Virus record (IMG/VR): IMGVR_UViG_2563366844_000003
Reading direction: 5' to 3' (one strand)
Origin: a virus
Taxonomy: Duplodnaviria; Heunggongvirae; Uroviricota; Caudoviricetes
Length of the DNA: 19,234 nucleotides
The notes beneath the pieces were generated by a model. That model saw only the letters and a program-made list of their open reading frames with translations. It had not been told where the DNA came from and made no database searches. Made by a program: the position numbers and the translations under genes. The number at the start of each line of letters is the position of its first letter. Positions within the stretch are counted from its first letter, which is position 1. This document shows, piece by piece, positions 1 through 19,106 of the stretch.

Positions 1-1260
1 ATGCCAAAACTCACAGATATGCAGATCCGCGCATGGATAAAGGCGGGAGACAGATTTGATGGCAAGGCAGACGGCAACGGCCTTTATATTTGCTACCCCA
101 AAAACTACACAGTCCCGTTCTGGCGATTCCGCTATAAGCTCGCAGGAAAGCAGCGGGCTATGGTTATAGGCTCTTACTCCGAACTGTCACTATCAAAAGC
201 CAGAGAAACAGCAAAAGAGCTGTCAGCCAGAGTTGCTCTTGGCTATGACGTAGCAGCAGAGAAACAGGTACGAAAAGCTGAAGCACTGGCAAAAATGGAG
301 GCTGAGAAAAACGCTATACGCGTTTCAGATCTGGCCGCCGAATACTTCGAGCGCCAGATACTTCCGAGATGGAAACATCCCGATATCCTTCGCCGGAGAA
401 TTGATAAGGATATTAACCCCTGCATTGGGCATATGAAGGTAGAGGACGTTAAGCCACGCCACATTGACGACATGTTGAAAGGTATCGTTGACCGAGGAGC
501 ACCAACGATAGCAACAGATGTATTACGCTGGACACGCCGTATCTTTGACTATGGAATAAAACGCCACGCTCTGGAGATAAACCCTTGTTCAGCGTTTGAA
601 GTATCTGATGCTGGTGGTAAAGAGGTTTCCCGCGACCGTTGGCTAACTCGCGATGAGCTTATCAGGCTATTCGAGGCTATGCGCACCGCAAAAGGATTCA
701 GCCGCCAGAACGAACTGACATTTAAGCTATTGCTGGCACTATGCGTTCGTAAGATGGAGTTATGTGCCGCACGATGGGAAGAGTTTGATTTAGATGGTGC
801 GGTATGGCATTTGCCGGAAGAACGCAGCAAAAACGGAGACCCTATTGATATACCTCTACCTTCCCCAGCCGTTGAATGGTTGAGAGAGCTACACACCTTT
901 TCATGTAATAGCGCATGGGTGCTTCCGGCCAGGAAGATGCAAAACAGAATGATCCCACATATTCAGGAAAGCACTTTACCCGTAGCACTGGCTAAGGTTC
1001 GCGCCGAAATGCCGGATGTGCCTAATTTCACGATTCACGACTTCCGACGCACCGCACGTACTCATTTAGCAGCGTTGGGTGTTGATCCTGTTGTGGCGGA
1101 ACGATGCCTCAATCATCGCATTAAGGGCGTAGAGGGGATTTATAACCGCCATCAGTATTTTGATGAGCGTAAAGCAGCACTGGCACAGTGGGCTGATCTG
1201 CTTGTGGCACTGGAAAGCGGAAAAGACTACAACGTAACGCCTCTCAGAAGGGCGAACTAA
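1..1260 (+). CDS. int: Tyrosine site-specific integrase, P4/CP4-57 type
   Basis: 419-aa ORF with a P4-type N-terminus (MPKLTD...IRAW.KAG). C-terminal catalytic region has HDFRRTARTHLAALG (H-x-x-R) and the terminal tyrosine in GIYNRHQY. Confidence 0.9.
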   Translation: MPKLTDMQIRAWIKAGDRFDGKADGNGLYICYPKNYTVPFWRFRYKLAGKQRAMVIGSYSELSLSKARETAKELSARVALGYDVAAEKQVRKAEALAKMEAEKNAIRVSDLAAEYFERQILPRWKHPDILRRRIDKDINPCIGHMKVEDVKPRHIDDMLKGIVDRGAPTIATDVLRWTRRIFDYGIKRHALEINPCSAFEVSDAGGKEVSRDRWLTRDELIRLFEAMRTAKGFSRQNELTFKLLLALCVRKMELCAARWEEFDLDGAVWHLPEERSKNGDPIDIPLPSPAVEWLRELHTFSCNSAWVLPARKMQNRMIPHIQESTLPVALAKVRAEMPDVPNFTIHDFRRTARTHLAALGVDPVVAERCLNHRIKGVEGIYNRHQYFDERKAALAQWADLLVALESGKDYNVTPLRRAN

Positions 1261-1355
1261 CTGAATAGATTGAGCCTAGCTCGACGGGGCGAAAAGCGGG
1301 AAGCCTTACCGCCTGGCTCAATCACAAAATAAGGCGCAGCGTAAAAGGTGACGCA

Positions 1356-3794: not shown

Positions 3795-3969
3795 GCCGAC
3801 AGGAACACCCCAACCTCAAAAACGCTACAAAGATGCCCACGGAGCACTCGTTACTGTCGAAAGCGTGTCTCACAACCGAGTGACGTTTTATCGCGACGGG
3901 TATCAATCGCCATGCGTACAACCGCTGGCACGTTTCATGAAGGAGTTTGCGGAGGTTAACAAATGCTAA
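3787..3969 (+). CDS. Small conserved prophage protein (DUF4222-like, tentative)
   Basis: 60-aa ORF starting at ATG 3787, which overlaps the antirepressor stop (ATGTTTAA). MFKPTGTP...RVTFYRDGY...PCVQPLARFMKEF resembles a small family common in enterobacterial prophages. The ORF track extends it upstream to 3700, inside the preceding gene. Confidence 0.45.
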   Translation: MFKPTGTPQPQKRYKDAHGALVTVESVSHNRVTFYRDGYQSPCVQPLARFMKEFAEVNKC

Positions 3970-5030
3970 CCGCCCAGAAGAAGATATTTTCACTGGCTGG
4001 TATGTCGCCAAAATCCAGCAATATGACAGCAAAGTCTGGCATTAATACAGCAGACACAAGCAAAGTTTATCATTTTCTGGTGGTAGGAGCGGATGCCTTA
4101 ACTATGTCAGAAATTACGGTCGATGGTGTTAGCGTTGAGAAGGTCAGCGGCTGCGCCAGAGAATTTCTGGTCGTAGATGGCTTTCTCTGCTCGCGTAGTG
4201 ACTCCACAAAAACCTTCGTCCACACGCGCGACGTTAACGAAATGAGCGCGATGTATTGTGCATCTGGTGCTTCCAATTCTGAGTTTTCGGAGTCCATAAA
4301 AAAGAGCTTGCCGTTATGCGGCAACACGGTTTATGGTTATAAGGCACCTCATAAAACGGGTGCCGGGATTGGCGTCCTGGTAAATCGAATGGCGACATAT
4401 GACGCGCCGAGCGTCTTTTTTTATGTCGTAGGTCTGACTCACCCATTTTTTGGGCGTTGGTGTATAATCCAGCGCCTTTGTCAATCAATGGTGGCTCAGG
4501 CAGGGGCTTCTTCGGAAGCGCCGGTATCCATTCGAGCCGGTTACGCCAACCCTGTCTGGGCTACCACCAGCGAAATTGGCGTTTCCGGTGGTAGCGTTAC
4601 ATGCTATCGAATGGAGGCTGCCACATGCTGGCTACTACCCCTACCCAAAAACCGCAATTTATCTGGATTATCGCCGCAGTTCGCCGCGATTGCCCGACAA
4701 TTACCGCCAAAATTCATCATATTGCTGCCGAGTCTGAACGCGATGCTCGCCGTTCTCTGGTGCGCGATCACGTCTGCTTTTTTGCTGGTCGTATCCGCAT
4801 GGAGGTGGCACATGATTAAAACCTACGATGTGCATATGGATCCCCTCGAACGCACAAGCCAGATCATCACACTGACAGAAGTGATTAACGACATTCTGGT
4901 GAGCAACTCTCCCTCACGAGACGAAAGACTGAAGGCGTTACTCGCGATATTGGATCTCGCCGTTCGTGACGTTCATTTCCTGCTGGAAGGTGGCGAAATG
5001 CCAGGAAAAACGGGGGCAACCAATGAATAA
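3963..5030 (+). CDS. Uncertain long ORF (355 aa); possibly composite, with a regulatory region and nested small ORFs
   Basis: Strong GGAGG SD 7 nt before ATG 3963 and no in-frame stop to 5030. The 4400-4810 portion contains a terminator-like hairpin plus T-run, a TATAAT box, three open frames and a low-complexity Cys/Trp-rich translation. Confidence 0.3.
4401..4422 (+). terminator. Putative intrinsic terminator (GACGC-gccga-GCGTC followed by T7)
   Basis: 5-bp GC stem, 5-nt loop, seven consecutive T. Lies inside the 3963 ORF, so it is functional only if that ORF is not translated through. Confidence 0.3.
4430..4470 (+). promoter_or_regulatory. Putative promoter with consensus -10 TATAAT (4463-4468) for the operon leading to the primase
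   Basis: Perfect TATAAT hexamer preceded by TG-rich sequence. The -35 is only a weak match (CTGACT region). Sits immediately after the terminator-like hairpin. Confidence 0.3.
4625..4819 (+). CDS. Small ORF (64 aa), first candidate gene of the primase operon
   Basis: GGAGG SD (4613-4617) 7 nt before ATG 4625. The SD-to-ATG 17-mer ATGGAGGCTGCCACATG is nearly duplicated at 4797-4814. Overlaps another frame, so low confidence. Confidence 0.25.
   Translation: MLATTPTQKPQFIWIIAAVRRDCPTITAKIHHIAAESERDARRSLVRDHVCFFAGRIRMEVAHD
4812..5030 (+). CDS. Small ORF (72 aa), C-terminal part of the 3963 frame with its own strong start
   Basis: GGAGG (4801-4805) 6 nt before ATG 4812. Stop overlaps the next start (ATGAATAA). 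Translation is protein-like. Confidence 0.4.
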   Translation: MIKTYDVHMDPLERTSQIITLTEVINDILVSNSPSRDERLKALLAILDLAVRDVHFLLEGGEMPGKTGATNE

Positions 5031-6642: not shown

Positions 6643-7006
6643 AAATGCAGAAATGGCGCTTAGCTCCGCAATCGGAGAGCAGGTGGCAAAGATTGCTGGT
6701 GCTGTGTGGATTCATAACCTTCATTCTACTGGTGAAGAGAAAATGGCAATTCAGACGCCAGAGGGACGCACCATTACTACATCTCTGAAGCCGTCAGATG
6801 TTTGTGATCTGATTTGCGCATTCATGTACCCAGCAATGAGGACTGTCCACGGCGATCAGTGGAAACTTGCGACAACCGCTGAATTTGATATGTGGCTAAA
6901 CAATGATGGCATGCTGACTGATTACGGAATAACCAAGTGGCAGATGCTGGTTAGCCATATCGCAAACGCTATAGACCACGTGGGGTACGGTGATGCGAAA
7001 CATTGA
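6635..7006 (+). CDS. Hypothetical protein (123 aa)
   Basis: GGAGG SD before ATG 6635; 3' end overlaps the primase start. Confidence 0.6.
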   Translation: MRENAEMALSSAIGEQVAKIAGAVWIHNLHSTGEEKMAIQTPEGRTITTSLKPSDVCDLICAFMYPAMRTVHGDQWKLATTAEFDMWLNNDGMLTDYGITKWQMLVSHIANAIDHVGYGDAKH

Positions 7007-9749
7007 TCTTATCCGTCAGGTTATCAGTGCGTCTGAAAACAACTGGCCTCATGTGCTGGGCTGCCTGAACATAAATGTCCCTGACTCTCCGCGCCGTCAT
7101 GCTCCCTGCCCTGCATGTGGGGGCAAAGATCGATTCCGGTTCGATGACAACGGGCGCGGTAGCTTCATCTGTAATCAGTGCGGCGCTGGTGATGGGCTGG
7201 ATTTAATTAAACGCGTAAATAACTGCGACACAACAGAGGCGGCGCTTCTTGCCGCTGATGTTCTGGGTATTGATTACCGGACAACGGAAACACCAGAAGC
7301 CACCAGCCAGAAACGGGAACAACTGGAAACCAAGCGCCAGCGACGCGAACAGGAGCGCCTGAAAAGGGCAGAGAAGGACGAACAACAAAGACGGGATACG
7401 TTTTCCCGTCAGTTTGATGACATGCGCAGAAAGGCTGTAAACGGCAAATCTGATTATCTGGTTGCGAAAGGGGTAGGTGATTTTACATTCCCCGTGTTGC
7501 CCGATGGATCTCTGTTGCTGGCGCTGGTGGATAAATCCGGCGCAGTCACAGCAGCACAGACTATTACCTCACATGGTGAAAAAAGACTCCTGACAGGTTC
7601 AGCAAAGCGGGGGGCATATCACGCCATAAACGCACCAGAAACAACACAGAGCATCTTAATCGCAGAAGGGCTGGCAACGGCATTATCTGCCCATTTAATT
7701 CGCCCAGAGGCGCTTACAGTGGCGGCGATTGATGCCGGGAACCTGTTATATGTCGCCCAGGTACTGCGGGATAAATTTCCTTCAGCACAAATCATCATTG
7801 CTGCGGATAACGACCACAGCGAAGGAAGACAAAACACGGGGAGAAGAGCAGCAGAAAAAGCAGCTTTATCTGTTTCTGGATGGGTGGCATTACCCCCGAC
7901 AGATCACAAAGCAGACTGGAATGATTACCACCAAAAACACGGCATTAAATGCGCCACAGAAGCGTTCAATAAGTCAATGTACCAACCACAGGGTAATGGC
8001 GTGAAACAGGAGCCACAGACCATTGAGGGAAGCGATTTTAAGGTTATGGATACCGACCCACTGAAACCAAGAATAGAAAGCCGCGAGGATGGTATTTATT
8101 GGGTATCTCCGAGAGCTGACAGCCAGAGTGGAGAAATCATCAATAACGAAAGCTGGTTATGTTCTCCGTTAAGCGTTATCGGTACTGGCAGAGACGATAA
8201 AGACCAGTATCTCATTCTTCGCTGGCTGTCGTTTGGTTCTGAAACGCCGACAACCGCTGCCATTCCACTGGCTGATATTGGTGAACGTGAAGGATGGCGC
8301 ACACTTAAAGCTGGTGGGGTAACTGTCACGACCAAAAGCAGCCTCAGAGCAATACTGGCAGACTGGCTACAACGCAGTGGCTCTCGTGAATTGTGGCGTG
8401 TTGCTCATGCCACTGGCTGGCAATGCGGAGCGTACATCATGCCTGATGGGGAAATCATCGGAACACCTGAAAATCCTGTGCTGTTCAGCGGGAGAAGCTC
8501 AGCCGCAGCCGGATATACCGTCTCAGGGAGCGCGAAAAGCTGGCGTGATAACGTGGCGCGTCTGGCCTTTGGTAACTATTCAATGATGACCGGGATCGGC
8601 GCAGCACTGGCAGCGCCATTGATTGGGCTGGTGGGCGCTGACGGGTTCGGCATTCATTTCTATGAGCAGTCGAGCGCAGGTAAGACCACCACGGCAAACG
8701 TGGCGAGCAGCTTATACGGCAACCCTGATTTACTGCGGCTGACGTGGTACGGAACCGCGCTGGGGCTGGCAAATGAAGCTGCCGCCCACAATGACGGACT
8801 AATGCCGCTTGATGAAGTTGGTCAGGGCGCTGATCCTGTCAGTGTTTCACAGTCTGCCTATGCGTTATTTAACGGTGTAGGGAAACTGCAAGGCGCTAAA
8901 GATGGTGGAAACCGGGATCTAAAACGCTGGCGTACAGTGGCAATCAGCACCGGAGAAATGGATTTAGAAACATTTATCGCTACTTCCGGGCGAAAAACCA
9001 AAGCCGGGCAACTGGTGCGACTGCTGAATATTCCGTTGAGTAAAGCAGTACGCTTTCACGATTACCAGAACGGAAAACAGCACGCAGACGCACTGAAAGA
9101 CGCTTACCAGCATCACCACGGCGCAGCCGGGCGTGAGTGGATTAAATGGCTGGCAGACCACCAGCAACAGGCAATTAAAACTGTTCGTGACCGCGAAAGC
9201 AGATGGAGAAGTCTGATCCCATCCGATTATGGTGAGCAGGTTCACCGTGTAGCCGCGCGATTTGCCATTCTGGAGGCCGCATTGCTGTTAGGCGAGGTTG
9301 TAACAGGCTGGGATGCTCAGACATGCCGTGATGCGATACAGCACAGCTATAACGCATGGTTGCGCGAGTTCGGCACAGGTAACAAAGAACATCAGCAGAT
9401 TATTGAACAAACGGAGGCATTTCTTAATGCCTATGGGCTTAGCCGTTTTGCACCATTTCCATACAGCCCGGCAGATTTGCCCATCAAAGATTTAGCCGGA
9501 TACCGTCAGCGTGGAGAACATGACGAAAGCCCAATGATTTTCTACACATTCCCGGCCACATTTGAAAAGGAGATCGCATGTGGTTTCAACGCAAAACAGT
9601 TTGCTGAAGTGTTGAAAAAAGCCGGGATGCTAACCCCACCAAACAGCGGTCGTGGATACCAAAGAAAATCACCACGTATTCAGGGACGACAAATAAACGT
9701 TTATGTACTCAATTACCAGCCAGGAGATTACAACTCATCTGAAGAATGA
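6993..9749 (+). CDS. Replicative primase/helicase, P4-alpha-like (zinc-binding N-terminus, TOPRIM, P-loop NTPase)
   Basis: Zn-ribbon CPACGG...FICNQCG near the N-terminus. TOPRIM-like ILIAEGLATA and IIIAADNDHSEG (acidic E and DxD). P-loop-like SSAGKTTT. Start is probably ATG 6993; the track begins at the in-frame GTG 6990. Confidence 0.9.
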   Translation: MRNIDLIRQVISASENNWPHVLGCLNINVPDSPRRHAPCPACGGKDRFRFDDNGRGSFICNQCGAGDGLDLIKRVNNCDTTEAALLAADVLGIDYRTTETPEATSQKREQLETKRQRREQERLKRAEKDEQQRRDTFSRQFDDMRRKAVNGKSDYLVAKGVGDFTFPVLPDGSLLLALVDKSGAVTAAQTITSHGEKRLLTGSAKRGAYHAINAPETTQSILIAEGLATALSAHLIRPEALTVAAIDAGNLLYVAQVLRDKFPSAQIIIAADNDHSEGRQNTGRRAAEKAALSVSGWVALPPTDHKADWNDYHQKHGIKCATEAFNKSMYQPQGNGVKQEPQTIEGSDFKVMDTDPLKPRIESREDGIYWVSPRADSQSGEIINNESWLCSPLSVIGTGRDDKDQYLILRWLSFGSETPTTAAIPLADIGEREGWRTLKAGGVTVTTKSSLRAILADWLQRSGSRELWRVAHATGWQCGAYIMPDGEIIGTPENPVLFSGRSSAAAGYTVSGSAKSWRDNVARLAFGNYSMMTGIGAALAAPLIGLVGADGFGIHFYEQSSAGKTTTANVASSLYGNPDLLRLTWYGTALGLANEAAAHNDGLMPLDEVGQGADPVSVSQSAYALFNGVGKLQGAKDGGNRDLKRWRTVAISTGEMDLETFIATSGRKTKAGQLVRLLNIPLSKAVRFHDYQNGKQHADALKDAYQHHHGAAGREWIKWLADHQQQAIKTVRDRESRWRSLIPSDYGEQVHRVAARFAILEAALLLGEVVTGWDAQTCRDAIQHSYNAWLREFGTGNKEHQQIIEQTEAFLNAYGLSRFAPFPYSPADLPIKDLAGYRQRGEHDESPMIFYTFPATFEKEIACGFNAKQFAEVLKKAGMLTPPNSGRGYQRKSPRIQGRQINVYVLNYQPGDYNSSEE

Positions 9750-9772
9750 GCTTCTTCATGTGCGTAGAAAAG

Positions 9773-9887
9773 GTGTTGGTTCAGTTGGTTCAGTTGGTTC
9801 AATTTATAAATGGTATTGTTTTATAAGGATTTTATTCTTTTTATTGAACCAACACTGAACCAACAACACGGTATTTTGAACCAACAC
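9773..9887. repeat. Iteron block 1: three tandem GTTGGTTCA (9775-9801), an AT-rich spacer, then three inverted copies TGAACCAAC (9845-9853, 9856-9864, 9877-9885); putative replication origin
   Basis: Exact 9-mers counted directly. Classic iteron plus AT-rich architecture, 26 bp downstream of the primase stop. Confidence 0.7.
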
Positions 9888-9935
9888 AATGTGACTGAAT
9901 TGATGCGCACAACACCTGGCTGGCATCAGAGAGTG

Positions 9936-10011
9936 TTTTACGAGACTTTCGTAAAATCCTGTGTACAAGGGCGTGACGTTTTTGAAAGTGAGCACTACGA
10001 AATTTTCGTAG
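9936..10011. promoter_or_regulatory. Two related palindromes sharing a TACGA/TCGTA half-site: TTTTACGA-n5-TCGTAAAA (9936-9956) and CTACGAAA-n1-TTTCGTAG (9995-10011)
   Basis: Perfect 8-bp inverted arms in both. Located between the iterons and the terminator; candidate operator sites or RNA hairpins. Confidence 0.3.
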
Positions 10012-10205
10012 TTCAGAAAACAGCCCTTGAGAAGTTGTTATGCCTGTTCAGCAAACCATCCGCATAGCTGATCGCGAATCAAATTACCAATGGAGCCAGA
10101 AGCAAGGGCAGAACTGAAAAGCGCCTGCCGTGAAGAGTAATGCGACACCATAAATATAGTTTTTAGAGTCCATAAAAAACCTGTCAAAACCTGACACACA
10201 GAACG

Positions 10206-10239
10206 ATGCCACCAGCTACTGAGCGGTGGCATTTTTTTT
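10206..10239 (+). terminator. Rho-independent terminator closing the primase/origin transcription unit
   Basis: ATGCCACC...GGTGGCAT stem (8 bp, extendable with inner pairs) followed by eight consecutive T. Confidence 0.65.
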
Positions 10240-10334: not shown

Positions 10335-10496
10335 ATGGCTATTTCAGTAAAGCCGGTATTGATAAGTGAGAAGCAAATGGAAGCGATAAAGAAAATTCAG
10401 GAAGAGCAGCGTAAAAAATCAGGAATTGGAGTAGCGCCAACTCTGCATGAAATTGCACGAGGGTTAATAGATAAGGCGCTGGCAGGCTGTATGTGA
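10335..10496 (+). CDS. Small ORF (53 aa) absent from the ORF track; possible ribbon-helix-helix-like regulator
   Basis: Strong SD AAGGGGG 5-6 nt before ATG 10335. Translation MAISVKPVLISEKQMEAIKKIQEEQRKKSGIGVAPTLHEIARGLIDKALAGCM has a beta-strand then two-helix pattern compatible with an RHH fold (by eye only). Confidence 0.4.
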   Translation: MAISVKPVLISEKQMEAIKKIQEEQRKKSGIGVAPTLHEIARGLIDKALAGCM

Positions 10497-10512
10497 AAAT
10501 GGATGGCATCGC

Positions 10513-10974
10513 ATGGAACTAAAATTTATTGATAACCCTGTGCGATTACAGGCCTTTCTTAACGAGCCTGGCAATACCGAAAATATTGTTGAGCCGGGGC
10601 ACACGTACTACATCAAGCCTGATGCGGTATATCTCGGTATCTACGAAGGATTGGTGCTGGCTGGCGTTCATGAAGTGCGTAACTTCTGGCATAACATTGT
10701 TGAATGCCATGCGGTGTACGACCCCGGATTCCGTGGTGAATATGCACTGCAAGGGCATCGATTATTCTGCAAATGGCTTCTCAAAAACTCACCATTCCTT
10801 AACAGCATTACCATGGTTCCTGACACCACCAAATACGGACGGGCAATTATCCGTTTGCTTGGCGCTACCCGTGTTGGTCACCTTGATGATGCTTATATCA
10901 GATGTGGTAAACCCGTCGGCGTAACGCTTTATCAGTTAACTCGGCAACAATATAAGGAATTCAGCGAATGTTAA
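10513..10974 (+). CDS. Putative virion-associated protein, first gene of the ejection-protein-like operon (position analogous to P22 gp14)
   Basis: 153-aa intact ORF whose stop overlaps the next start. Assignment rests on operon position and size, not a recognised motif. Confidence 0.65.
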   Translation: MELKFIDNPVRLQAFLNEPGNTENIVEPGHTYYIKPDAVYLGIYEGLVLAGVHEVRNFWHNIVECHAVYDPGFRGEYALQGHRLFCKWLLKNSPFLNSITMVPDTTKYGRAIIRLLGATRVGHLDDAYIRCGKPVGVTLYQLTRQQYKEFSEC

Positions 10975-11645
10975 TTACCCATATAGCTCATAAATATCTC
11001 AATCGTGCCGTATACGAAAAAGGCGGTGATGGTGGTGCCTCTAAAGCTCAGGCGAAGGCCCAGCAGCAGGCAATTGATTTGCAGCGCGAGCAGTGGAATA
11101 CGGTGATGAATAATCTCAAGCCGTATGCAGAAGTCGGATTGCCTGCTTTACAACAACTACAAGGACTGATGACTCTGGAAGGGCAGAATAAAGCCGCGAA
11201 TGATTTCTTTGGTTCTGGTTTATATAAAACACAGGCAGATCAGGCCCGTTATCAGAACCTTGTCTCAGCAGAAGCTACCGGGGGGCTTGGCTCAACAGCT
11301 ACCAGTAACCAGTTATCTTCCATTGCGCCCATGCTTTATAACAATTGGCTCAGTGGGCAAATGCAAAATTATGGAAACCTGCTAAATGTCGGGATGAATG
11401 CGGCATCAGGGCAGGCAACAGCAGGGCAAAACTACGCCAATAATACCGGACAACTCTTGCAGGGGCTTGGCGCTATTCGTGCAGGTCAGGCGCAGCAGCC
11501 ATCCAGTCTTGCGCGTGGTATTGGTGGGGCGGCATCAGGCGCTTTAGCGGGTGCGCAACTTGGTTCCGTTGTTCCGGGTATAGGTAATGTCGCCGGGGCT
11601 ATTGGTGGTGGGCTTATTGGTCTTGTTGGGGGGCTTGGATTCTAA
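10968..11645 (+). CDS. Putative ejection/DNA-transfer protein (P22 gp7-like architecture; Gly-rich hydrophobic C-terminus)
   Basis: 225 aa. Gln/Ala-rich N-terminal half and a glycine-zipper-like tail GIGGAASGALAGAQLGSVVPGIGNVAGAIGGGLIGLVGGLGF. Stop overlaps the next start (TAATG). Confidence 0.7.
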   Translation: MLITHIAHKYLNRAVYEKGGDGGASKAQAKAQQQAIDLQREQWNTVMNNLKPYAEVGLPALQQLQGLMTLEGQNKAANDFFGSGLYKTQADQARYQNLVSAEATGGLGSTATSNQLSSIAPMLYNNWLSGQMQNYGNLLNVGMNAASGQATAGQNYANNTGQLLQGLGAIRAGQAQQPSSLARGIGGAASGALAGAQLGSVVPGIGNVAGAIGGGLIGLVGGLGF

Positions 11646-12964
11646 TGGCGACATGGCAACTTGGCGGGCTGCCTAGCATGGCACCGCAAAATGATAATGC
11701 TCCTCGTTCTTCCGTTCCTCAGCCTGTGCAGTATCAGCAGCAGCCAAACGTAGGTTTAATGGCGCTACAGGGGCTAAGAGGCGTTGCTGAGATTAATCAG
11801 CAGGCGCAAATTTCCCAGCAGCTAAAAGAATATCAGGCACGGTTGGGTAGTGCGGTAGCTAATAATGATCGTGTTGGAGTGCAGAAGTTAATGGCCCAGT
11901 ATCCCCAGTTTATGGCTGATTCTCAAAAACAGATGGGATTCATTGATGCTGAGCAAAATCGACAGACCGCTGACGCTGCCATGAATCTGCGTCTTGCGTC
12001 ACAAACTGGAGATCCACTGACCATGCAGAAGGCCATTCAGCAGGCAAATCCAGTATTACAGCGATTTGGTCTTCCTGCTGAAGAGGTTTATCAGTCTTGG
12101 CAGAATGACCCACAGGAATTCAACAGAATCACTGACCTCATCCACCTCCATGCTGATCCAAATAGTTACTTTAGTGTTCAAGAGAAGCAGCAAGGGCAGA
12201 GCATTGCACAGCAGAACGCAGATACATCTGCATATAATGCTCAGGTTAATGCGGAACAGGGTAATCGGCGTCTCGATATGGAGCAGTTCAAAGTCCTATC
12301 CGATAACCAACTACGCACGAGAGAAATGGTTCTGAAAGCACGACTTGGACGTGCTCAAAATGACATCGAGAGAGACAAGCTCAATGCTGAACTGAGCAAA
12401 GTACAGCAGGCGAAAGTGGAGAAGATGAACGATAAAATTAATACTGTTGCAGGTAACATCGACTCCTTGAACTCTGCGCTTGAAGTGGGTCATGAACTGG
12501 CGGGAATTGTAGGGAAACATCCTTCGGCCGTTACCCGCTCGCAGAACTATAACCCCCTGACGCTGGGGTTTGGATTCCTTCCTGATGTAGCAGAAGACAC
12601 ACGAAGCCTACGCGCCAAAGCTGATGAATACAACCTAAAGGTTATTCTGCCTAGCCTCAAAGGGACTTTTGGCTCTAACCCAACCGAAGGGGAAAGGGCT
12701 GCCCTTATGCAATCTCAAAATGGCATTAAGTCAGCAACCAGCAATGAGGCATTTTTGCGAGAGTTGAATAAAGCGCAGGACGTAATTATTCGAATGCAGA
12801 AACGACAGATTGCCGGGCTCGGTATTCCTGTAACCAAATCAAAGGACGAAGAAACTGATACCAAAATGCTGTTGCAGGATCCTTCACTGATTAAGGATTA
12901 TGTGACCGCACATGGCTATCTGCCGGAAAGTTACTATCAGGCAAAACTTAAGGGATGGCAATGA
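11645..12964 (+). CDS. Putative ejection protein (P22 gp20-like; Gln-rich coiled-coil)
   Basis: 439 aa, Gln-rich and predicted alpha-helical. Coupled start/stop with both neighbours. Confidence 0.7.
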   Translation: MATWQLGGLPSMAPQNDNAPRSSVPQPVQYQQQPNVGLMALQGLRGVAEINQQAQISQQLKEYQARLGSAVANNDRVGVQKLMAQYPQFMADSQKQMGFIDAEQNRQTADAAMNLRLASQTGDPLTMQKAIQQANPVLQRFGLPAEEVYQSWQNDPQEFNRITDLIHLHADPNSYFSVQEKQQGQSIAQQNADTSAYNAQVNAEQGNRRLDMEQFKVLSDNQLRTREMVLKARLGRAQNDIERDKLNAELSKVQQAKVEKMNDKINTVAGNIDSLNSALEVGHELAGIVGKHPSAVTRSQNYNPLTLGFGFLPDVAEDTRSLRAKADEYNLKVILPSLKGTFGSNPTEGERAALMQSQNGIKSATSNEAFLRELNKAQDVIIRMQKRQIAGLGIPVTKSKDEETDTKMLLQDPSLIKDYVTAHGYLPESYYQAKLKGWQ

Positions 12965-15681
12965 TGGCACAACTGACAGAAAAACAGAAAGCCTATTCCC
13001 GTCATCTCGATGAAAAATATGGTTTCCCATCAGGGACGATGGAAACATTAGTTGGCAATGAATCTAGTGGTAACGGAAGTGCCGAGTCACCGAAAGGAGC
13101 TAGAGGATTTGCTCAACTGATGCCCTCAGTAATGAGTGATGCTGGTTATCGTGGAACTGATCCGCGCTCACTGCCATTTGAAAAGCAAATGGATATCGCA
13201 GCAAACCATCTCAATAAAGGAATGAAGCGATTTGGTGATATTGGTATGGCATTGGCTGGGTATAATTCTGGCTATGCTCGTATTAATGCCGTCAGAAACG
13301 GTAAATCTACACTGCCAGATGAAACGGCTAATTACGTAAGTAAATTTGCAGATGCCGGAATAATCCCTGATGACAGTGAAATCTTGCAGTTTGCACAAAC
13401 CAGTCAACATCGCAATCTTCAGCAGCCTGACTACTCAGAGCTTGATAAAGAAATCTCTCAGGTGGGAGATATTTCTGCATGGGAAGCAAAACGTCAGCAA
13501 TTTAAGAACATAGAAGCAGGACTACCAACAGCCAGTTCATGGGAGCAGAAAAGAGCTCAGTTTCTCGCCGATGAAAATGCCGGGGAACCGCAGCAGCAAG
13601 TAGCCAAGTCTAACCTTAATCCTGAGATGGAATATCTTTCGCCAGGACTGAAAGCTGCGCCAGAGCAGATGGCCAGAGGGATTGCTAATATACCGTTTGA
13701 TGTAATGGACGCAGGCGTGGGGGTAGTCAATGCGGCGCAATCAGCCGGAGCATGGGCAGCTCAGAAGCTTGGTGTGGGTGATGGCACATACACGCCCATA
13801 TCACCTGTCTTTCGCCCAGTAGACCAACCTACAGATCCATACGCGCAGGCTGGTGAGCAGCTAGCACCTTACCTTATTACAGGATTAGGTGCAGGAAAGG
13901 CAGCTACCGCAGCTTCTTCCGTTGCCAACGCTCCACGTGCTGAACGTGCGGCCACAAAGGTGGCTAGTATGTTGGCAGAAAACCTGCCAGGTACATTGGT
14001 GAACGCCCAAAAGAACGGGCAGATCAGCCCAGAAGACCTAGCAAAAGAGACAGGTATTGGCCTAGCAGGATCGCTAGGAGCACGCGCTTTAATAAAGAGC
14101 GGACAGACAGCCAGTGACGTAATGCGAGATGTATTGCGGAGTAATACAAATCAATCAGGCCATGTGTTAGGGGCAGCAAATACTCTGGAAACCGCCAATG
14201 ATGTATCGAAAGCAGCGCGTTCTGCCGTAGGCCGAGAGCATATCGCATCGCAGGCATCAAACGTCAGAGATGATGTCGCTAAGGCGGCGAAAATCACTGG
14301 TATTAATATCAACACCCTGACGCCCGGAATGCGCTCAGGTAGTCGTGGAATTGCCCAAGCAGAAGGTGTTCTGGCATCAACTCCTGGGAATGTTCAGGAT
14401 GCTCACCTTACGGCCTTCAATGAAATATCCTCAAAGTTGAATAAGCAGTTGTCTGATTTCGGTGCTGAGTCTGGAAGCGCATCAGAAAAAAGCGCAGCAA
14501 TTAAAGAGCGCATCATCGCGAGCCTCAGTGATATGAAAACAGCAGAGAATATGGCATGGGCAGAACTGCGAAGCACGATGCCACGCGAAAGGATGAAAAT
14601 GAGTAATGGGATGGCTGTCGTCCAAGCAGAAAAAGCAGCCAATGTTCCACTCAGCCCGGAGATGAAACAGTTTCAGGCTGCCAACAACCAAGGTGGCGGC
14701 ATAACCTTCGACGGGATGAAGGCATGGCGTGCTAAGTTTGCTGATGCTGAACAAGCAAACACCCGGGCAGGTAAGGCCAATGCCGCCCGGATTGCCGGAG
14801 AAATGCGCAGAGCTATCACTGATGACATGCGCATCATGGCTGAAAAAGGAAACTTCCTCACAGAATGGCAGAAAGCTAACGATCTCTCTAAAAGTTACAT
14901 TATCGCCAAACAAAATGCCGAATCTGTTTTTGGTCGAGATCTCGCATCAGACGCTATGGTAAGAAAAGGTGCCGATACGCTTAAGGCATCCGCAAACACT
15001 GGAACGGGAGCTTTTCACCGCCTTATCTCCGCGCTGCCGGAAGCAGAACGCCAACCAGCAATAGCATCTATTCTTCAGCATGCTGTGGCGCAGGGAGAGA
15101 AGGGAGGAATCGGTGAAGAGTCTGGTATCCAGTATTTTGCCAAGCTCATGACCCAGCAGAATGTAAACGCCATCAGTCGTCATGCGCCAGATCTCGGTAG
15201 AATGATGAAAGAGTTCGGTGTACTCGCTAAAGCCAGCACCAGACCGCAGCGATACGTAGAGCGCACGGGAAGAACAACTGAGGCTCTCAAAACGCTCGAT
15301 TCAGGCCTTCCAAAGATCGTCGGTGTGATCATGAACGGAGTTCAACAGTCAGGTGCGATCGCTGGAGGCTTTGGCGGTGGTGTAATTGGTTCGATTAGTG
15401 GTTTGGTTGCTGGTGGCGCACTGAGAAATACTGTGGCTAAGATTGGGGCGACAAGAAGTGGTCGATATGCGATAGAGAAAGCCGTTCAGGAAGCTACAAA
15501 AGCAGTGCGCGCAGGGGCATCACCAGCAGCGATCGCCGCAGCAGAGAAACGATTTTCGACCAATAAAATTGCCATGAAAGCAATTCGTGATGCCGTTGGG
15601 GCTGAAGAATTCGTGAAACTGACAAGGGCCGGGATTGTAGCTACCCTCAGTGGCATGAAAGATGTTAGCGAATGGGAATAG
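12955..15681 (+). CDS. Large internal virion/ejection-type protein with N-terminal lytic transglycosylase (SLT) domain
   Basis: 908 aa. SLT motifs GNESSGNGSAESPKGARGFAQLMP (putative catalytic Glu at nt 13060-13062) and ALAGYNSGYARINAV. True start is probably ATG 12961 or 12964, which have better SD spacing from AAGGGA. Confidence 0.85.
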   Translation: MAMMAQLTEKQKAYSRHLDEKYGFPSGTMETLVGNESSGNGSAESPKGARGFAQLMPSVMSDAGYRGTDPRSLPFEKQMDIAANHLNKGMKRFGDIGMALAGYNSGYARINAVRNGKSTLPDETANYVSKFADAGIIPDDSEILQFAQTSQHRNLQQPDYSELDKEISQVGDISAWEAKRQQFKNIEAGLPTASSWEQKRAQFLADENAGEPQQQVAKSNLNPEMEYLSPGLKAAPEQMARGIANIPFDVMDAGVGVVNAAQSAGAWAAQKLGVGDGTYTPISPVFRPVDQPTDPYAQAGEQLAPYLITGLGAGKAATAASSVANAPRAERAATKVASMLAENLPGTLVNAQKNGQISPEDLAKETGIGLAGSLGARALIKSGQTASDVMRDVLRSNTNQSGHVLGAANTLETANDVSKAARSAVGREHIASQASNVRDDVAKAAKITGININTLTPGMRSGSRGIAQAEGVLASTPGNVQDAHLTAFNEISSKLNKQLSDFGAESGSASEKSAAIKERIIASLSDMKTAENMAWAELRSTMPRERMKMSNGMAVVQAEKAANVPLSPEMKQFQAANNQGGGITFDGMKAWRAKFADAEQANTRAGKANAARIAGEMRRAITDDMRIMAEKGNFLTEWQKANDLSKSYIIAKQNAESVFGRDLASDAMVRKGADTLKASANTGTGAFHRLISALPEAERQPAIASILQHAVAQGEKGGIGEESGIQYFAKLMTQQNVNAISRHAPDLGRMMKEFGVLAKASTRPQRYVERTGRTTEALKTLDSGLPKIVGVIMNGVQQSGAIAGGFGGGVIGSISGLVAGGALRNTVAKIGATRSGRYAIEKAVQEATKAVRAGASPAAIAAAEKRFSTNKIAMKAIRDAVGAEEFVKLTRAGIVATLSGMKDVSEWE

Positions 15682-15831
15682 ACGCTCTAACTAACAAAAC
15701 CATAATAGCCAAGGACGGCATACTGATATTGAGCCAACTATAAAAATTCCATATCACATTACGAGCCTGTGGCTTACATTCGCTTACAGTGATGATAATT
15801 TATAACCACGCAATTCTTAGGTGAGATTATC

Positions 15832-16530
15832 ATGATTAAAAATCTTCTTTTAATATTATCCCTGTCATTATTGGCTGGATGCGTACAAAAACCGTTAGTA
15901 ACGGTCAATGCTTTATCCTCCGGGCAATCTGTCGGTAAGAAGTTCTTGATCATCCCCGCAAGCCAAGAACTTTGGAACACCAAACAGATTGAATACACTC
16001 AAATAGCTACGGTAGTAGCCGCCAGTTTATCAAGCCAAGGATATACACAAGTTAAAGATGAAAAATTGGCTGACCAGGTAATTCTCTTGAACTTTTTGAG
16101 AAGCGGGGCCATTTCAAATACTCGTAATGTAACCATCCCAATATACGGGCAAACTGGTGTGAGCTCAGCAACAACGTACGGAAACTCGAACACCACGTTC
16201 AATAGTTATGGTGGTGGCTACGGTACGGCTAATACCACTGGAACGGCAACAACAGTTTATACGCCTACTTATGGAATTACTGGCGCGTATAACACAACTG
16301 TGACGGACACGTTCTACGGCGCAGGGGTGATACTCCAGTCGTTTGATGCCAAGGCTTATCTCAATAATAGGCAGATTAATATGTTATGGAAAGTTGGTAG
16401 CTCAGTCGTCTCGCAACAGTCTGATGGAATTGCTGATTACAAAGGGTTGGCGAGAATAGCCGCTAGCTATGCCGGGAAAAATACAGAAGGTGATATAACT
16501 TTTAATGTTGACCCTAAAGCACCAAATTAA
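15832..16530 (+). CDS. Lipoprotein with Thr/Gly/Tyr-rich low-complexity core
   Basis: Signal peptide plus lipobox LLAGC. Central T/G/Y/N-rich tract (about aa 110-160). AGGTGAG SD. AT-richer than the upstream operon. Confidence 0.8.
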   Translation: MIKNLLLILSLSLLAGCVQKPLVTVNALSSGQSVGKKFLIIPASQELWNTKQIEYTQIATVVAASLSSQGYTQVKDEKLADQVILLNFLRSGAISNTRNVTIPIYGQTGVSSATTYGNSNTTFNSYGGGYGTANTTGTATTVYTPTYGITGAYNTTVTDTFYGAGVILQSFDAKAYLNNRQINMLWKVGSSVVSQQSDGIADYKGLARIAASYAGKNTEGDITFNVDPKAPN

Positions 16531-16537
16531 CTAATAA

Positions 16538-16553
16538 GCCCGGTACGCCGGGC
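16538..16553 (+). terminator. GC-rich hairpin GCCCGG-tacg-CCGGGC after the lipoprotein gene (weak terminator candidate)
   Basis: 6-bp GC stem with a 4-nt loop, 8 bp after the stop, but a poor U-tract (ATTCAT). Confidence 0.3.
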
Positions 16554-16743
16554 ATTCATGCCCCTATTATTCATGAATCGCTTTTTCTGGAAGGTATGCG
16601 ACAAACGTTAAGTGACATTGCCTACACATTCGGGGCGGGATTTCAAATCCGCTCCCAGTTGATGGGGCCGTTACAGTACGCGCATATCCGCTTTATGTGA
16701 AACAGGAAGATTTTTCTGATATCACTGCCACAGCAAAACACCA

Positions 16744-16956
16744 ATGTCGAGACAAGTACGCGCGCGAGGGTTATCAGTTGCAAAAAGTTTTGCAACTGCG
16801 TCCGACCAGTACGCACACAATGGAGGGGAGTACCATAAAACTGTTCTCTACATAAGACAGAGTGATGGTGATGTGTTGATTATCGGCTTATATGCGCACA
16901 GGACGCGCTATGACGATGTTTTATGCGGGTACACCAATCACATATATCTGGTGTGA
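16744..16956 (+). pseudogene. Possible remnant of a RelE/ParE-superfamily toxin gene (C-terminal motif only)
   Basis: C-terminal HKTVLYIRQSDGDVLIIGLYAHRTRYDD loosely matches the RelE/ParE C-terminal pattern, but the N-terminal 35 aa are not toxin-like and overlap repeat sequence. Weak. Confidence 0.2.
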
Positions 16957-17055
16957 TAAATCGCGTTACATGACCTCTCATGTTGTGCTGGTGGTTATCA
17001 CGACGTTCTGAATCTGGCCTTTGCCTGGTATTTTGCGACAAGTACGCGCGCGTAG
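16752..17055. repeat. Direct repeats GACAAGTACGCGCGCG (16752-16767 and 17040-17055) flanking a 24-bp perfect palindrome CAGTTGCAAAA-AG-TTTTGCAACTG (16775-16798)
   Basis: Exact 16-mer occurs twice 288 bp apart. A third TACGCGCGCG occurs at 19012-19021. Confidence 0.6.
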
Positions 17056-17600
17056 CATCGAAATAATCGGATGGCGTATGCTGCTGGTAATATGAAGACC
17101 GATAGCATTAACCGAAAGGAGAAAGACTTCTCGATAACGGCAAGATCGCGGCAAGGGGGCTGAATTGCGAGGCGAGATTAAGCAACTGTCTTGAACGTAA
17201 AAATCATGGAGCAACATGATGGTACGATTCATTCCATTCTTCGTTCTTTCTGAGCATTGCGTTCAGGCTTAGTCAAAATTAGTGTTGCGAGCGGACCTAT
17301 TAGTAATTGTTAGTGCGATGCGCCTGTTATGGATTGTTATGGTTGTGGCAGGCCTGATTAATATCCAGTATGACCACCAGCTATGAGAAGCCACCTCAGT
17401 GGTTCGCAGTTGCAGGTTTGCACTCAGGTTCGCAGGGTTTTGGCTACTTTCACGTGCGAACCTGCAGAATTGCAAAGGACAACTAAGTCCTCTGGCCAAC
17501 TCCCGGTTTATGAGCGACACAGTCCGCCTGGCGCATCGTTTTCGTCGAGTGCGCCCATCAGCTTGTCCATGGACTATCCACCACTCGATATTAAAGCTAA

Positions 17601-17786
17601 TCATTGGTTGCCAGCCCGCGAATCAAGTTTATTCTGGATCCAAGCTTCAACCTCCTCAAGCGACCATCTAGCTGATCTACCAATTTTAACTGGCTGTGGA
17701 AACGTGCCCGTCTTAACCCATGAGTAGATTGCCGTTTTCTTGAAGCCCGTTCTGAGCATGACTTCGCTTAATTTGATAAGGCGCAT
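17601..17786 (-). CDS. alpA: Second AlpA-family transcriptional regulator, opposite strand
   Basis: 61 aa. MRLIKLSEVMLRTGFKKTAIYSWVKTGTFPQPVKIGRSARWSLEEVEAWI is a textbook AlpA sequence. GGAG SD on the minus strand upstream. Confidence 0.85.
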   Translation of the reverse strand: MRLIKLSEVMLRTGFKKTAIYSWVKTGTFPQPVKIGRSARWSLEEVEAWIQNKLDSRAGNQ

Positions 17787-17835
17787 AGAGGCTCCTCTGC
17801 TTTAGATTAAGCATAGTGACAATCTGGCTTTGGGC

Positions 17836-17870
17836 GGTATCCAAAAGCGAGGTATCCATGTTGGTATCCA
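17836..17870. repeat. Three direct GGTATCCA repeats (17836-17843, 17851-17858, 17863-17870) in the divergent region upstream of minus-strand alpA
   Basis: Exact 8-mers spaced 15 and 12 bp apart, start to start. Confidence 0.5.
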
Positions 17871-17984
17871 CCAAAACGCTGTTTACCAAAAAAGTTACCA
17901 CCGGAACAGGACATTTTGAGCTGTAACTTAACACATAGCATATGGAGTTCACGTATAGACTTCACGCACAACGGCTCCGGCCAG

Positions 17985-18013
17985 TGAAGAATCACCCTGG
18001 CTGGCAATATAAT
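17985..18013 (+). promoter_or_regulatory. Putative promoter (-10 TATAAT at 18008-18013) for the small + strand ORF
   Basis: Consensus -10 hexamer with a weak -35 (TGAAGA) at 17-bp spacing. Confidence 0.3.
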
Positions 18014-18038
18014 GCCGATCACCATCAGAGGGGAATCC

Positions 18039-18215
18039 ATGACACCACGAGAAATCGAGCTGCTGACCATTGCCAAGCTGGAGCATGACGGCCACCAGCT
18101 CAGCCCGGCAGAACTGCGGGAATTAAGGCGCCAGCTGGCAGAGGGCCCTGTAATAGCCAGGCGGTACCGCGAAATGATGACCAGCGCCGCTCCGTGCGCG
18201 GTGAGCAGCACCTAA
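18039..18215 (+). CDS. Small hypothetical protein (58 aa)
   Basis: GAGGGG SD 5 nt before ATG 18039. The track's start at 18012 overlaps the -10 box and lacks an SD. Confidence 0.45.
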   Translation: MTPREIELLTIAKLEHDGHQLSPAELRELRRQLAEGPVIARRYREMMTSAAPCAVSST

Positions 18216-18276
18216 CCAGCACTAGACAAGCCCTGTGCTGGTGGATGTCCCTCATAATTAGCGGTTTTTAAACGGC

Positions 18277-18401
18277 GTGTTGGTTCACGGCCTCTTTTTG
18301 TTGGTTCAAAAATGGGGGGTGTTGGTTCACTTTTTGCGAATAATCCTTTTAAAAACAATACTCTTTACAAATTGAACCAACTGAACCAACTGAACCAACA
18401 C
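18277..18401. repeat. Iteron block 2: three spaced GTTGGTTCA (18279-18287, 18300-18308, 18321-18329), an AT-rich spacer, then three tandem TGAACCAAC (18373-18399); inverted copy of block 1
   Basis: Same 9-mer as block 1, with the tandem and spaced arrays swapped. The reverse complement of the spacer aligns with the block-1 spacer (shared ATTTRTAAA...GTATTGTTTT...AGGATT...ATTC). Confidence 0.7.
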
Positions 18402-18723: not shown

Positions 18724-19106
18724 TGCTCTCTCTGTTTTGGCAAATTACCCCTCACTTTGAAGGGATCGGAGCTATAAAAATGGTGTTATCCGGCTTCCTG
18801 CATTGCAGGTTTTCGAAAAAATCAATGGGTTAGGTCATCGTGCAAATTTGCACTCTGCCAGCCAACGCAATTTCTCGTTGGCGAAAATATCAGGTATTTA
18901 CTGAACGAACGGTCTACCAGTCTATTCAGTTACCAGTTGCACATGGCTGTTTCATGTGAGAACGGAGGTTTTTTCGGACATCACTATTGGGTACAGCAAT
19001 TTCACGAGCAATACGCGCGCGCAGGACAACAAGCCTGAACATGATTACACACCTCGATCGTGAGGGATGTAGACAATGGCTTCTGACCAAAGCACCCAAA
19101 AAAACC

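Follow-up and report, generated by a model that had tools for sequence, protein, structure and literature searches.

The repeat array at positions 9773–9887 of the window (the whole stretch of 19,234 nucleotides that was analysed) is probably an origin module bound by the primase-helicase, Pri-Rep, of a phage-inducible chromosomal island (PICI) of the EcCIMP1 type. Judging from the sequence and from analogy with better characterised elements, we put the probability of this reading at about 80%. The array is referred to as module A hereafter. The evidence consists of its sequence features and their statistics, a position and geometry that are conserved among relatives, the covariation of the repeat units (iterons) with a short part of Pri-Rep (the wing), and protein homologies. 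Module A is of an origin type that has already been described, and an origin after the primase gene is ordinary for such elements. What is new here is a second module, a series from compact to split arrangements with intervening cargo, and the pairing between wing and iteron. The origin of the EcCIMP1-type PICIs, previously undescribed, is now located as a prediction.

Repeats directly after the primase gene

The primase reading frame comprises 919 codons (GTG at 6990; RefSeq start, ATG, at 6993) and stops with the TGA at 9747–9749. The earlier note had described 9-bp iterons in direct and inverted orientation around a 43-bp AT-rich tract, beginning 26 bp after this stop codon, and both points were confirmed: all the copies are exact, and the first 9-mer begins at 9775 (Table 1). 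The + strand copies of GTTGGTTCA are arranged in tandem with a spacing of 9 bp, and the start-to-start distances of the − strand copies are 11 and 21 bp. The boundaries 9773 and 9887 correspond to the ends of two 11-nt arms, GTGTTGGTTCA and TGAACCAACAC. This organization agrees with that of the PICI/SaPI origins in two respects. One is the position immediately 3′ of the initiator gene, with an iteron 26 nt after the stop codon, which is likewise found in about 60 relatives. Another is the presence of opposed iteron sets, three and three exact 9-mers, around an AT-rich region.

The statistics of the array are also clear. The window contains 12 exact copies of GTTGGTTCA against 0.15 expected, all of them in two clusters, and the largest number found in 200 dinucleotide-preserving shuffles of the window was 2. 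The window as a whole has an A+T content of 52%, and just 0.016% of its 43-bp windows are as AT-rich as the tract between the two iteron sets, which is the most AT-rich one of the island. The strong single-strand fold of module A (z = −5.3) is due to the inverted iterons.

Several short motifs accompany the iterons. The leader motif is found at the same position in relatives with different iterons (L004–L056), and the motifs TTTGTAAAG and TTGTTTTATAAGG of the spacer are partly conserved across relatives. The CTGGCTGG(C) motif occupies the center between the two modules in compact relatives and is kept across iteron types. At the position of the left arm, the relatives carry two to seven tandem iteron copies. 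At a coverage of at least 80%, module A was found in 365 of the 5,426 complete E. coli genomes, typically at two places in each, and feature annotation is absent there.

Table 1 Coordinates of the features in the window
Feature	Position	Strand	Remarks
Tyrosine integrase gene	1–1260		Followed by the int-alpA RNA
int-alpA RNA	1269–1335		Rfam match above the gathering score
isrK RNA	4344–4421		Rfam match above the gathering score
C4 antisense RNA	4484–4571		Rfam match above the gathering score
Pri-Rep initiator gene	6993–9749	+	919 aa
Leader between stop codon and first iteron	9750–9774		Contains the semi-conserved CA(C/T)(A/G)TGCG(T)AG motif (9759–9767)
Module A, left arm	9775–9801	+	Three tandem 9-bp iterons, GTTGGTTCA, at 9775, 9784, and 9793; exact matches
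Module A, AT-rich spacer	9802–9844		43 bp, 86% AT; proposed melting site
Module A, right arm	9845–9885	−	Three inverted iterons at 9845, 9856, and 9877; exact matches
CTGGCTGG motif	9916–9923		Recurs in relatives
Variable cargo between the modules	10484–18298	+	Homology breakpoints against the 12-kb circle L001 at 10483 and 18299
P22-type gp14/gp7/gp20/gp16-like DNA-ejection genes	10513–15681		phrog_651, phrog_598, phrog_917/2534, phrog_770; PHROG and NCBIfam matches
Module B, spaced arm	18279–18329	+	Iterons at 18279, 18300, and 18321; 21-bp spacing; exact matches
Module B, AT-rich spacer	18330–18372		43 bp, 77% AT; homologous to the module A spacer in reverse orientation
Module B, tandem arm	18373–18399	−	Three tandem iterons; exact matches

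Structure of Pri-Rep

Pri-Rep is composed of a Zn-ribbon and TOPRIM primase part (residues ~35–319), a DUF927 helicase (366–644), and a C-terminal winged-helix-like domain (~850–910), and its Pfam matches are Zn_Ribbon_Prim, Toprim_3, and DUF927. The predicted wing of the winged-helix domain covers residues ~889–905, which are encoded by nt 9654–9704. Residues 8–362 align with the P4 alpha primase domain at 33% identity (359 aligned positions; E = 5e-42), and similarity between the two proteins was not found beyond residue 362. Over residues 404–814, the matches are to 8tch, a SaPI replication initiator and helicase (E = 1.6e-11), and to Cch, the helicase of SCCmec; in its helicase and C-terminal part, Pri-Rep is homologous to SaPI Rep or folds like it. 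It combines a primase domain of the alpha type (Zn ribbon and TOPRIM), as in P4-type elements, with two traits that are characteristic of PICI/SaPI replicons, a Rep-type self-loading helicase and a C-terminal winged-helix domain that is predicted to determine iteron specificity. A D5-type SF3 helicase or C-terminus (D5_N, DUF5906, Pox_D5), as in P4-type proteins, was not found in Pri-Rep. According to the work on SaPI Reps, the origin iterons are recognized by the C-terminal winged-helix domain, ATP is not required for binding or melting of the origin, and the Reps are self-loading 3′–5′ helicases (PMC9371898).

Conserved geometry and switching iterons among relatives

We collected 77 loci from one-genome-per-species contigs by primase protein similarity only, and sought their iterons de novo among 8-mers that are over-represented within 300 bp downstream of the stop codon. 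The same geometry after the stop codon was found in about 60 loci, with primase identities of 51–99%, plus L071 at 30%. The iterons start 22–48 nt past the stop codon in almost all loci whose downstream sequence is readable. The common layout consists of tandem copies with 9-bp spacing, an AT-rich gap of ~50 bp, and inverted copies at +0, +11, and +32.

The iterons themselves differ between lineages. At least eight types were found, each paired with a distinct wing sequence. GTTGGTTCA occurs in most loci, together with the wing QRKSPRIxGRQxNVYV; GTTGTCTCA occurs in L008, L010, L011, L012, and L018, together with QGRV-REDGRQIRVYV; TAACCCGT in L016, L030, and L037, with KRKALKRIGGKQHTFY; GTCGGTTC in L022, L043, L044, L056, and L059, with TRKTLRIDGKQPRFVV; and TTATCCCA in L057, L063, and L064, with QIRTPRLKHLNNARPWTYV. 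The remaining iterons are GTCGGGTA (L047), TAACCCAC (L054), and CAGGGGCA (L071, where the 30%-identical protein is from a Desulfohalobiaceae MAG).

The switching is best seen between elements of type 1 and type 2, whose overall similarity is about equal. They have the whole scaffold in common, from the leader and the spacers to the central CTGGCTGG and the flank on the right, whereas, wherever a full iteron is present in both types, each copy in either module is TGAACCAAC or TGAGACAAC according to the type. From type 1 to type 2, the wing changes from QRKSPRI to QGRV-RE. A comparison of L006 and L008 localizes the change: the identity is 98–100% at 700–900 bp upstream of the stop codon, falls to 54–69% over the last 100 bp of the gene, and recovers further downstream. 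As read from the sequences, this is what a co-adapted pair of initiator and iteron looks like. Since the wing-coding DNA lies only ~50–100 bp from the iterons, co-inheritance by linkage could produce part of this covariation. The pairing of protein wing and DNA iteron is readable, with at least eight natural specificities on one scaffold, and could be used for building orthogonal replicons.

Among the relatives, mainly those with the GTTGGTTCA iteron, conservation extends to the iterons and to their phasing, and it is the intervening DNA that has diverged. The column conservation of iterons and spacers (0.96 vs 0.57) is biased, because these sequences were chosen by their iteron content, and it serves as an illustration; the unbiased evidence for conservation is the protein-anchored locus set described above.

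A second, mirror-image module

The earlier note had described a single repeat region, which corresponds to module A; a second cluster at 18279–18399 had been missed. This cluster, module B, is an imperfect reverse complement of module A, and the two form an inverted repeat of ~130 bp. The alignment of module A with the reverse complement of module B has 38 bp of full identity across the tandem arm, and parts of the spacer are conserved as well. The distance from A to B in the window is about 8.4–8.5 kb, including ~7.8 kb of variable, helper-phage-like cargo. Relatives with several types of iteron retain the right flank of module B, TTTTGCTTAT(C)TATATA. In L001, the three 9-mers of module B and their 21-bp spacing are the same as in the window, although the DNA between them has diverged, which indicates that module B is maintained.

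To see how the two modules are arranged elsewhere, the own iteron of each locus was mapped across the whole available sequence for 63 loci. In about 31 of these, module A is directly followed by the second module, so that 11–12 iterons lie within ~250–330 bp. In 15 loci, including the window, L001, and L002, the second module was found 0.3–9 kb downstream. Module A alone was found in about 17 of the 63 loci, within 10 kb or less of downstream sequence (less than 6 kb in six of them). Roughly a quarter of the relatives thus show module A alone within this span, and module B is not universal. Its spacer is GC-rich in several lineages. The two tandem triplets point toward one another in all of the IMG/VR contigs, at a distance of either 231 bp or 7.5–10.5 kb, and the Rahnella locus L036 has exactly the A and B layout of the window with the modules only 58 bp apart. 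A search of IMG/VR for distant B modules with other iteron types gave mostly single modules, as was also the case among the type-4 loci, which tempers the view of module B as a general requirement.

As a separate observation, L034 (Yersinia pekkanenii) carries three origin-like iteron clusters, at −5736, −1154, and +27 from the primase stop codon. The primase match there exceeds the usual length by ~1.1 kb, and 'HNH endonuclease domain-containing protein' is the name given to a related fragment. The gene may contain an insertion, or the replicon may be duplicated, either partially or in tandem.

The presence of two clusters admits another reading, in which module A is a crr-like, cis-acting auxiliary site for Pri-Rep, and replication starts at the distal module B or only upon looping between A and B. 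In the annotated P4 record, crr is located ~46 bp after the alpha stop codon and ori ~4.7 kb away, both with the type-1 repeat. The P4 analogy of the earlier note has to be corrected in this respect: the P4 cluster directly after alpha is crr, not ori. Since that cluster is annotated apart from the origin, the start site in the window could be module B, which has an AT-rich spacer of its own (77%) and perfectly conserved iterons. Besides, the tested ori fragment of EcCICFT073 held both ends of a compact composite. Nevertheless, we regard the crr-like reading as unlikely. Module A is present in nearly every relative with readable downstream sequence, always AT-rich, and it holds the most AT-rich tract of the island, whereas module B is missing within 10 kb or less in the ~17 loci counted above and has the GC-rich spacers just mentioned. 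The origins of SaPIs and PICIs are also located directly 3′ of rep (PMC6092414, PMC9371898).

Since modules A and B form an imperfect inverted repeat that brackets variable cargo, they might, instead of being replication sites, mark the ends of a cargo cassette that can move or invert, as its terminal inverted repeats, or be scars of recombination. We give this idea hardly any credence: the modules abut without cargo in the ~31 compact relatives, a transposase or invertase gene was not recognized among the scanned cargo ORFs, and the iterons and their phasing, rather than the DNA between them, are what the relatives (mainly those with the GTTGGTTCA iteron) have conserved.

Other readings of the iterons

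Another function to be considered is transcriptional: the iterons may mainly be operators, through which Pri-Rep or another regulator controls the cargo operon and perC, with replication not being primary. The positions of the modules are compatible with such a function, in that module A precedes the cargo genes, the tandem arm of module B ends 36 bp ahead of the perC start codon (18436), and a conserved TTTTGCTTATATATA-like flank follows module B in many relatives, ahead of ssb or perC. However, a sigma-70-type promoter was not found near A or B, and a promoter reading of the modules was rejected for the same reason. The geometry is that of the tested PICI/SaPI origins, directly 3′ of the initiator gene, and the iterons covary with the helicase's own C-terminal domain. 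A mainly regulatory function is therefore very improbable, while a dual role of the iterons, in operator function and in replication, is possible.

Further readings were tried and rejected. For a host-factor (DnaA-type) origin, the scans with the DnaA-box and IHF consensus sequences revealed no enrichment: DnaA-box-like matches in the window are no more frequent than in the shuffles, the only one inside either module being a one-mismatch site at 18335–18343 in the module B spacer, and the IHF consensus was not found in the modules, its single match in the window being at 18820, outside both. A terminator between the stop codon and the iterons was not found; a weak GAAGAA/TTCTTC hairpin lies across the stop codon without a T-run. 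As for an RNA element, neither module gave an Rfam match. An origin held in common with the helper phage was also discarded, as Kapi1 contains zero copies of GTTGGTTCA.

Gene content of the island

The window is a whole 19-kb E. coli PICI with the gene order of EcCIMP1. In E. coli CV839-06, the same island is flanked by yicC and dinD (99% coverage, 98.4% identity). As judged from the sequence, the gene content, the chromosomal flanks, and the int-alpA RNA are those of a Gram-negative PICI, a class of 10–20 kb islands with int-alpA-pri in one direction, an attachment site of their own, an incomplete set of virion genes, and induction by a helper phage, the last reported for EcCIMP1. The integrase gene is followed by genes for AlpA and an AntA antirepressor, the P4-like isrK and C4 RNAs, and several small ORFs, and then by the primase-helicase gene, module A, the ejection gene set, a few more ORFs, module B, and PerC. 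The isrK and C4 antisense RNAs, which are P4-type immunity RNAs, fall inside the RefSeq 'ash family protein' ORF (3963–5030), so this ORF may be over-called.

The DNA between the modules varies by locus. In the window it carries the P22-type ejection genes, and the phrog_770 ejection protein, the last of the set, is fused to a lytic transglycosylase domain. At the same inter-module position, the relatives carry tape-measure genes (L019:14632-18039 and L055:16234-18909) or genes for SLT-domain proteins (L021 and L060), L060 also having the P4 'Beta protein'. It seems that satellites of this family supply DNA-delivery proteins of their own, which fit the type of helper.

Some records of small 'plasmids' are related PICIs in circular form. 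The 12,152-bp circular E. coli 'plasmid' NZ_CP148430.1 (L001) is the same element with a shorter, different cargo and both modules. Because it joins the right end of the window to the left end, it represents the excised circle, and its junction is of the attP type, as in an excised circle. The 19.2-kb circular 'plasmid' of Klebsiella pneumoniae, CP031370.2 (L080), is a related PICI. Both had been deposited as small non-mobilizable 'plasmids', and both have int and primase genes.

Three side observations concern the rest of the island. One is the abundance of Chi (GCTGGTGG): 15 copies were found in the 19.2-kb window, 7 on the + strand and 8 on the − strand (e.g., 18237–18244 on + and 10209–10216 on −), where shuffles of the window gave an expectation of 0.70 and a largest count of 3. 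The density is 0.73–0.99 per kb in the island of the window, EcCIMP1, EcCICFT073, and the two circular 'plasmid' islands, 0 in P4, 0 in the helper Kapi1, and 0.1–0.25 in the chromosomal flanks. A prior report on Chi density in PICIs was not found in our literature search. The Chi sites may protect linear or concatemeric replication products from RecBCD.

Another is a segment of ~110 bp (4111–4224) that is 87–88% identical to the pac-containing part of gene 3, the small terminase gene of P22. Of the 22 bases of the P22 pac site, 16 are matched where the window aligns with it; the exact pac 22-mer, allowing up to 3 mismatches, was not found in the window. This pac-like segment may offer a route for packaging of the island by P22-like helpers. 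The packaging mechanism of EcCIMP1 has been left open (PMC11773190).

The last concerns the ~600-bp unannotated stretch between module A and the cargo. Two 15-bp palindromes, TACGAGACTTTCGTA (9939–9953) and TACGAAATTTTCGTA (9996–10010), sit there 57 bp apart, and a direct repeat, AAAACCTGTC/AAAACCTGAC, is found at 10176–10195, with a terminator-like hairpin at 10215–10230. From their sequences, these repeats and palindromes look like operators for a dimeric regulator.

Proposed mode of replication

The conserved position and geometry and the wing-linked switching of the iterons fit the published PICI/SaPI origin layout. Together with the homology to SaPI Rep, this fit supports, by inference from sequence and analogy, the primase-binding origin that had been proposed in the earlier note.

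The steps of binding, melting, helicase loading, and initiation at module A, as well as any role of module B, are inferred, with the biochemical steps taken from the work on SaPIs and PICIs. After induction of the helper phage and excision of the island, the 919-aa Pri-Rep would settle on the 9-bp iterons, contacting them with the beta-hairpin wing of its C-terminal winged-helix domain. Its assemblies (oligomers) on the two opposed iteron sets would then open the 43-bp AT-rich spacer, and the DUF927 helicase, which is of the SaPI-Rep/Cch type, would load itself at the melted spacer. The fused P4-alpha-like TOPRIM primase would make the primers, and the host polymerase would complete the process.

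Module B has the same iterons and would most likely be bound by the same Pri-Rep. It may act from a distance, as a helper or a brake, or serve as another start site of opposite orientation. Because A and B abut in many relatives, giving an origin of ~300 bp, and are apart here, module B is probably a distant auxiliary or a second start.

A broader idea, which we offer tentatively and with more doubt than confidence, is that this PICI family has an origin built of two modules in mirror symmetry (tandem iterons, AT-rich spacer, and spaced iterons, followed by spaced iterons, spacer, and tandem iterons), the center of which is the place where 'late' cargo derived from helper phages is inserted. 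If this is true, one initiator would act on two half-origins ~8.5 kb apart, and the split origin would work by looping, as for P4 crr/ori and R6K, or as two opposed start sites. The architecture of the origin would then be directly linked to the capture of helper genes by satellites. The split, mirror-image layout around the cargo is a testable lead on both satellite replication and the acquisition of helper-like genes.

Comparison with known systems

A tested precedent is found among the PICIs and SaPIs: initiator-dependent autonomous replication of a cloned pri-rep with its ori has been demonstrated for EcCICFT073 and for SaPIs, and the circular 'plasmid' records of related islands are suggestive in this regard. 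The origins of the E. coli PICIs are located immediately 3′ of pri-rep and have an AT-rich region with a set of iterons on either side (Fillol-Salom et al. 2018, PMC6092414). A pri-ori clone of EcCICFT073 supported plasmid maintenance, and deletion of ori or pri impaired it (PMC6092414). In the EcCICFT073 locus, the CTGTCTACC-type iterons that we found span 7010 to 7236 and include a tandem pair facing inward at either end; ssb and perC come next. According to the published primers, the tested fragment ends at ~7307 and the delta-ori construct at ~7000. These limits indicate that the validated 'ori' is the whole compact composite, not one half, and EcCICFT073 therefore does not demonstrate that a half resembling module A is sufficient.

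The features that the window has in common with the PICI/SaPI replicons (EcCICFT073, SaPIbov1, SaPI1, and SaPI5) are an ori 3′ of the initiator gene, opposed short iterons with an AT-rich center, a self-loading helicase initiator with a C-terminal winged-helix domain and sometimes a fused primase, and the int-alpA-pri/rep context. The differences are threefold. The helicase is of the D5_N/DUF5906/Pox_D5 kind in EcCICFT073, whereas DUF927 and a P4-alpha-type TOPRIM primase are found in the window; the iterons are CTGTCTACC in the former and GTTGGTTCA in the latter; and two mirror modules ~8.5 kb apart take the place of the one compact stretch of ~230–300 bp in the known PICI/SaPI replicons.

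The resemblance to P4 is partial. The N-terminal Zn-ribbon/TOPRIM primase domain is homologous, the window has P4-like C4 and isrK RNAs, and in both elements one short repeat forms two separate clusters, one just past the primase gene and the other kilobases off. P4 alpha reportedly binds both crr and ori, which are said to be required in cis. On the other hand, P4 alpha has a D5-type helicase and an origin-binding part that are not homologous to the DUF927-type Pri-Rep. The P4 alpha analogy of the earlier note hence holds for the primase domain and the two-locus layout, and fails for the helicase and the origin-binding part. The P4 type-1 iteron, TGTTCACC, is absent from the window, where GTTGGTTCA is the repeat at both loci. 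In addition, P4 crr consists of a direct duplication of 120 bp and does not mirror ori, whereas module B mirrors module A.

Iteron plasmids with distant clusters, such as P1 (oriR/incA) and R6K (gamma with the alpha and beta origins), also have one initiator acting at two loci. There, the distant iteron locus serves as an enhancer (looping in R6K) or a brake (handcuffing in P1). Their initiators, RepA and pi, are without helicase or primase and unrelated to Pri-Rep, and their origins depend on the host DnaA. These plasmids are offered only as an analogy for what module B may do.

As a whole element, a close relative is EcCIMP1 of E. coli MP1, which excises, circularizes, and is transduced upon induction of the P22-like helper vB_EcoP_Kapi1; the paper describing it mentions an origin or iterons nowhere (PMC11773190). 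EcCIMP1 and the window are alike in gene order, a near-identical Pri-Rep, ejection-protein cargo, PerC, and both iteron clusters. They differ in the integrase and attachment site, which is proA/tRNA-Thr in EcCIMP1 and yicC-dinD in the window. Module A of EcCIMP1 (L083:19276-19396) also has, between the first two spaced iterons, a 10-bp duplication (ACACGGTATT) that is absent from the window. This insertion changes the spacing from 11/21 to 21/21 bp, that is, by one helical turn, so the phase of the iterons is kept.
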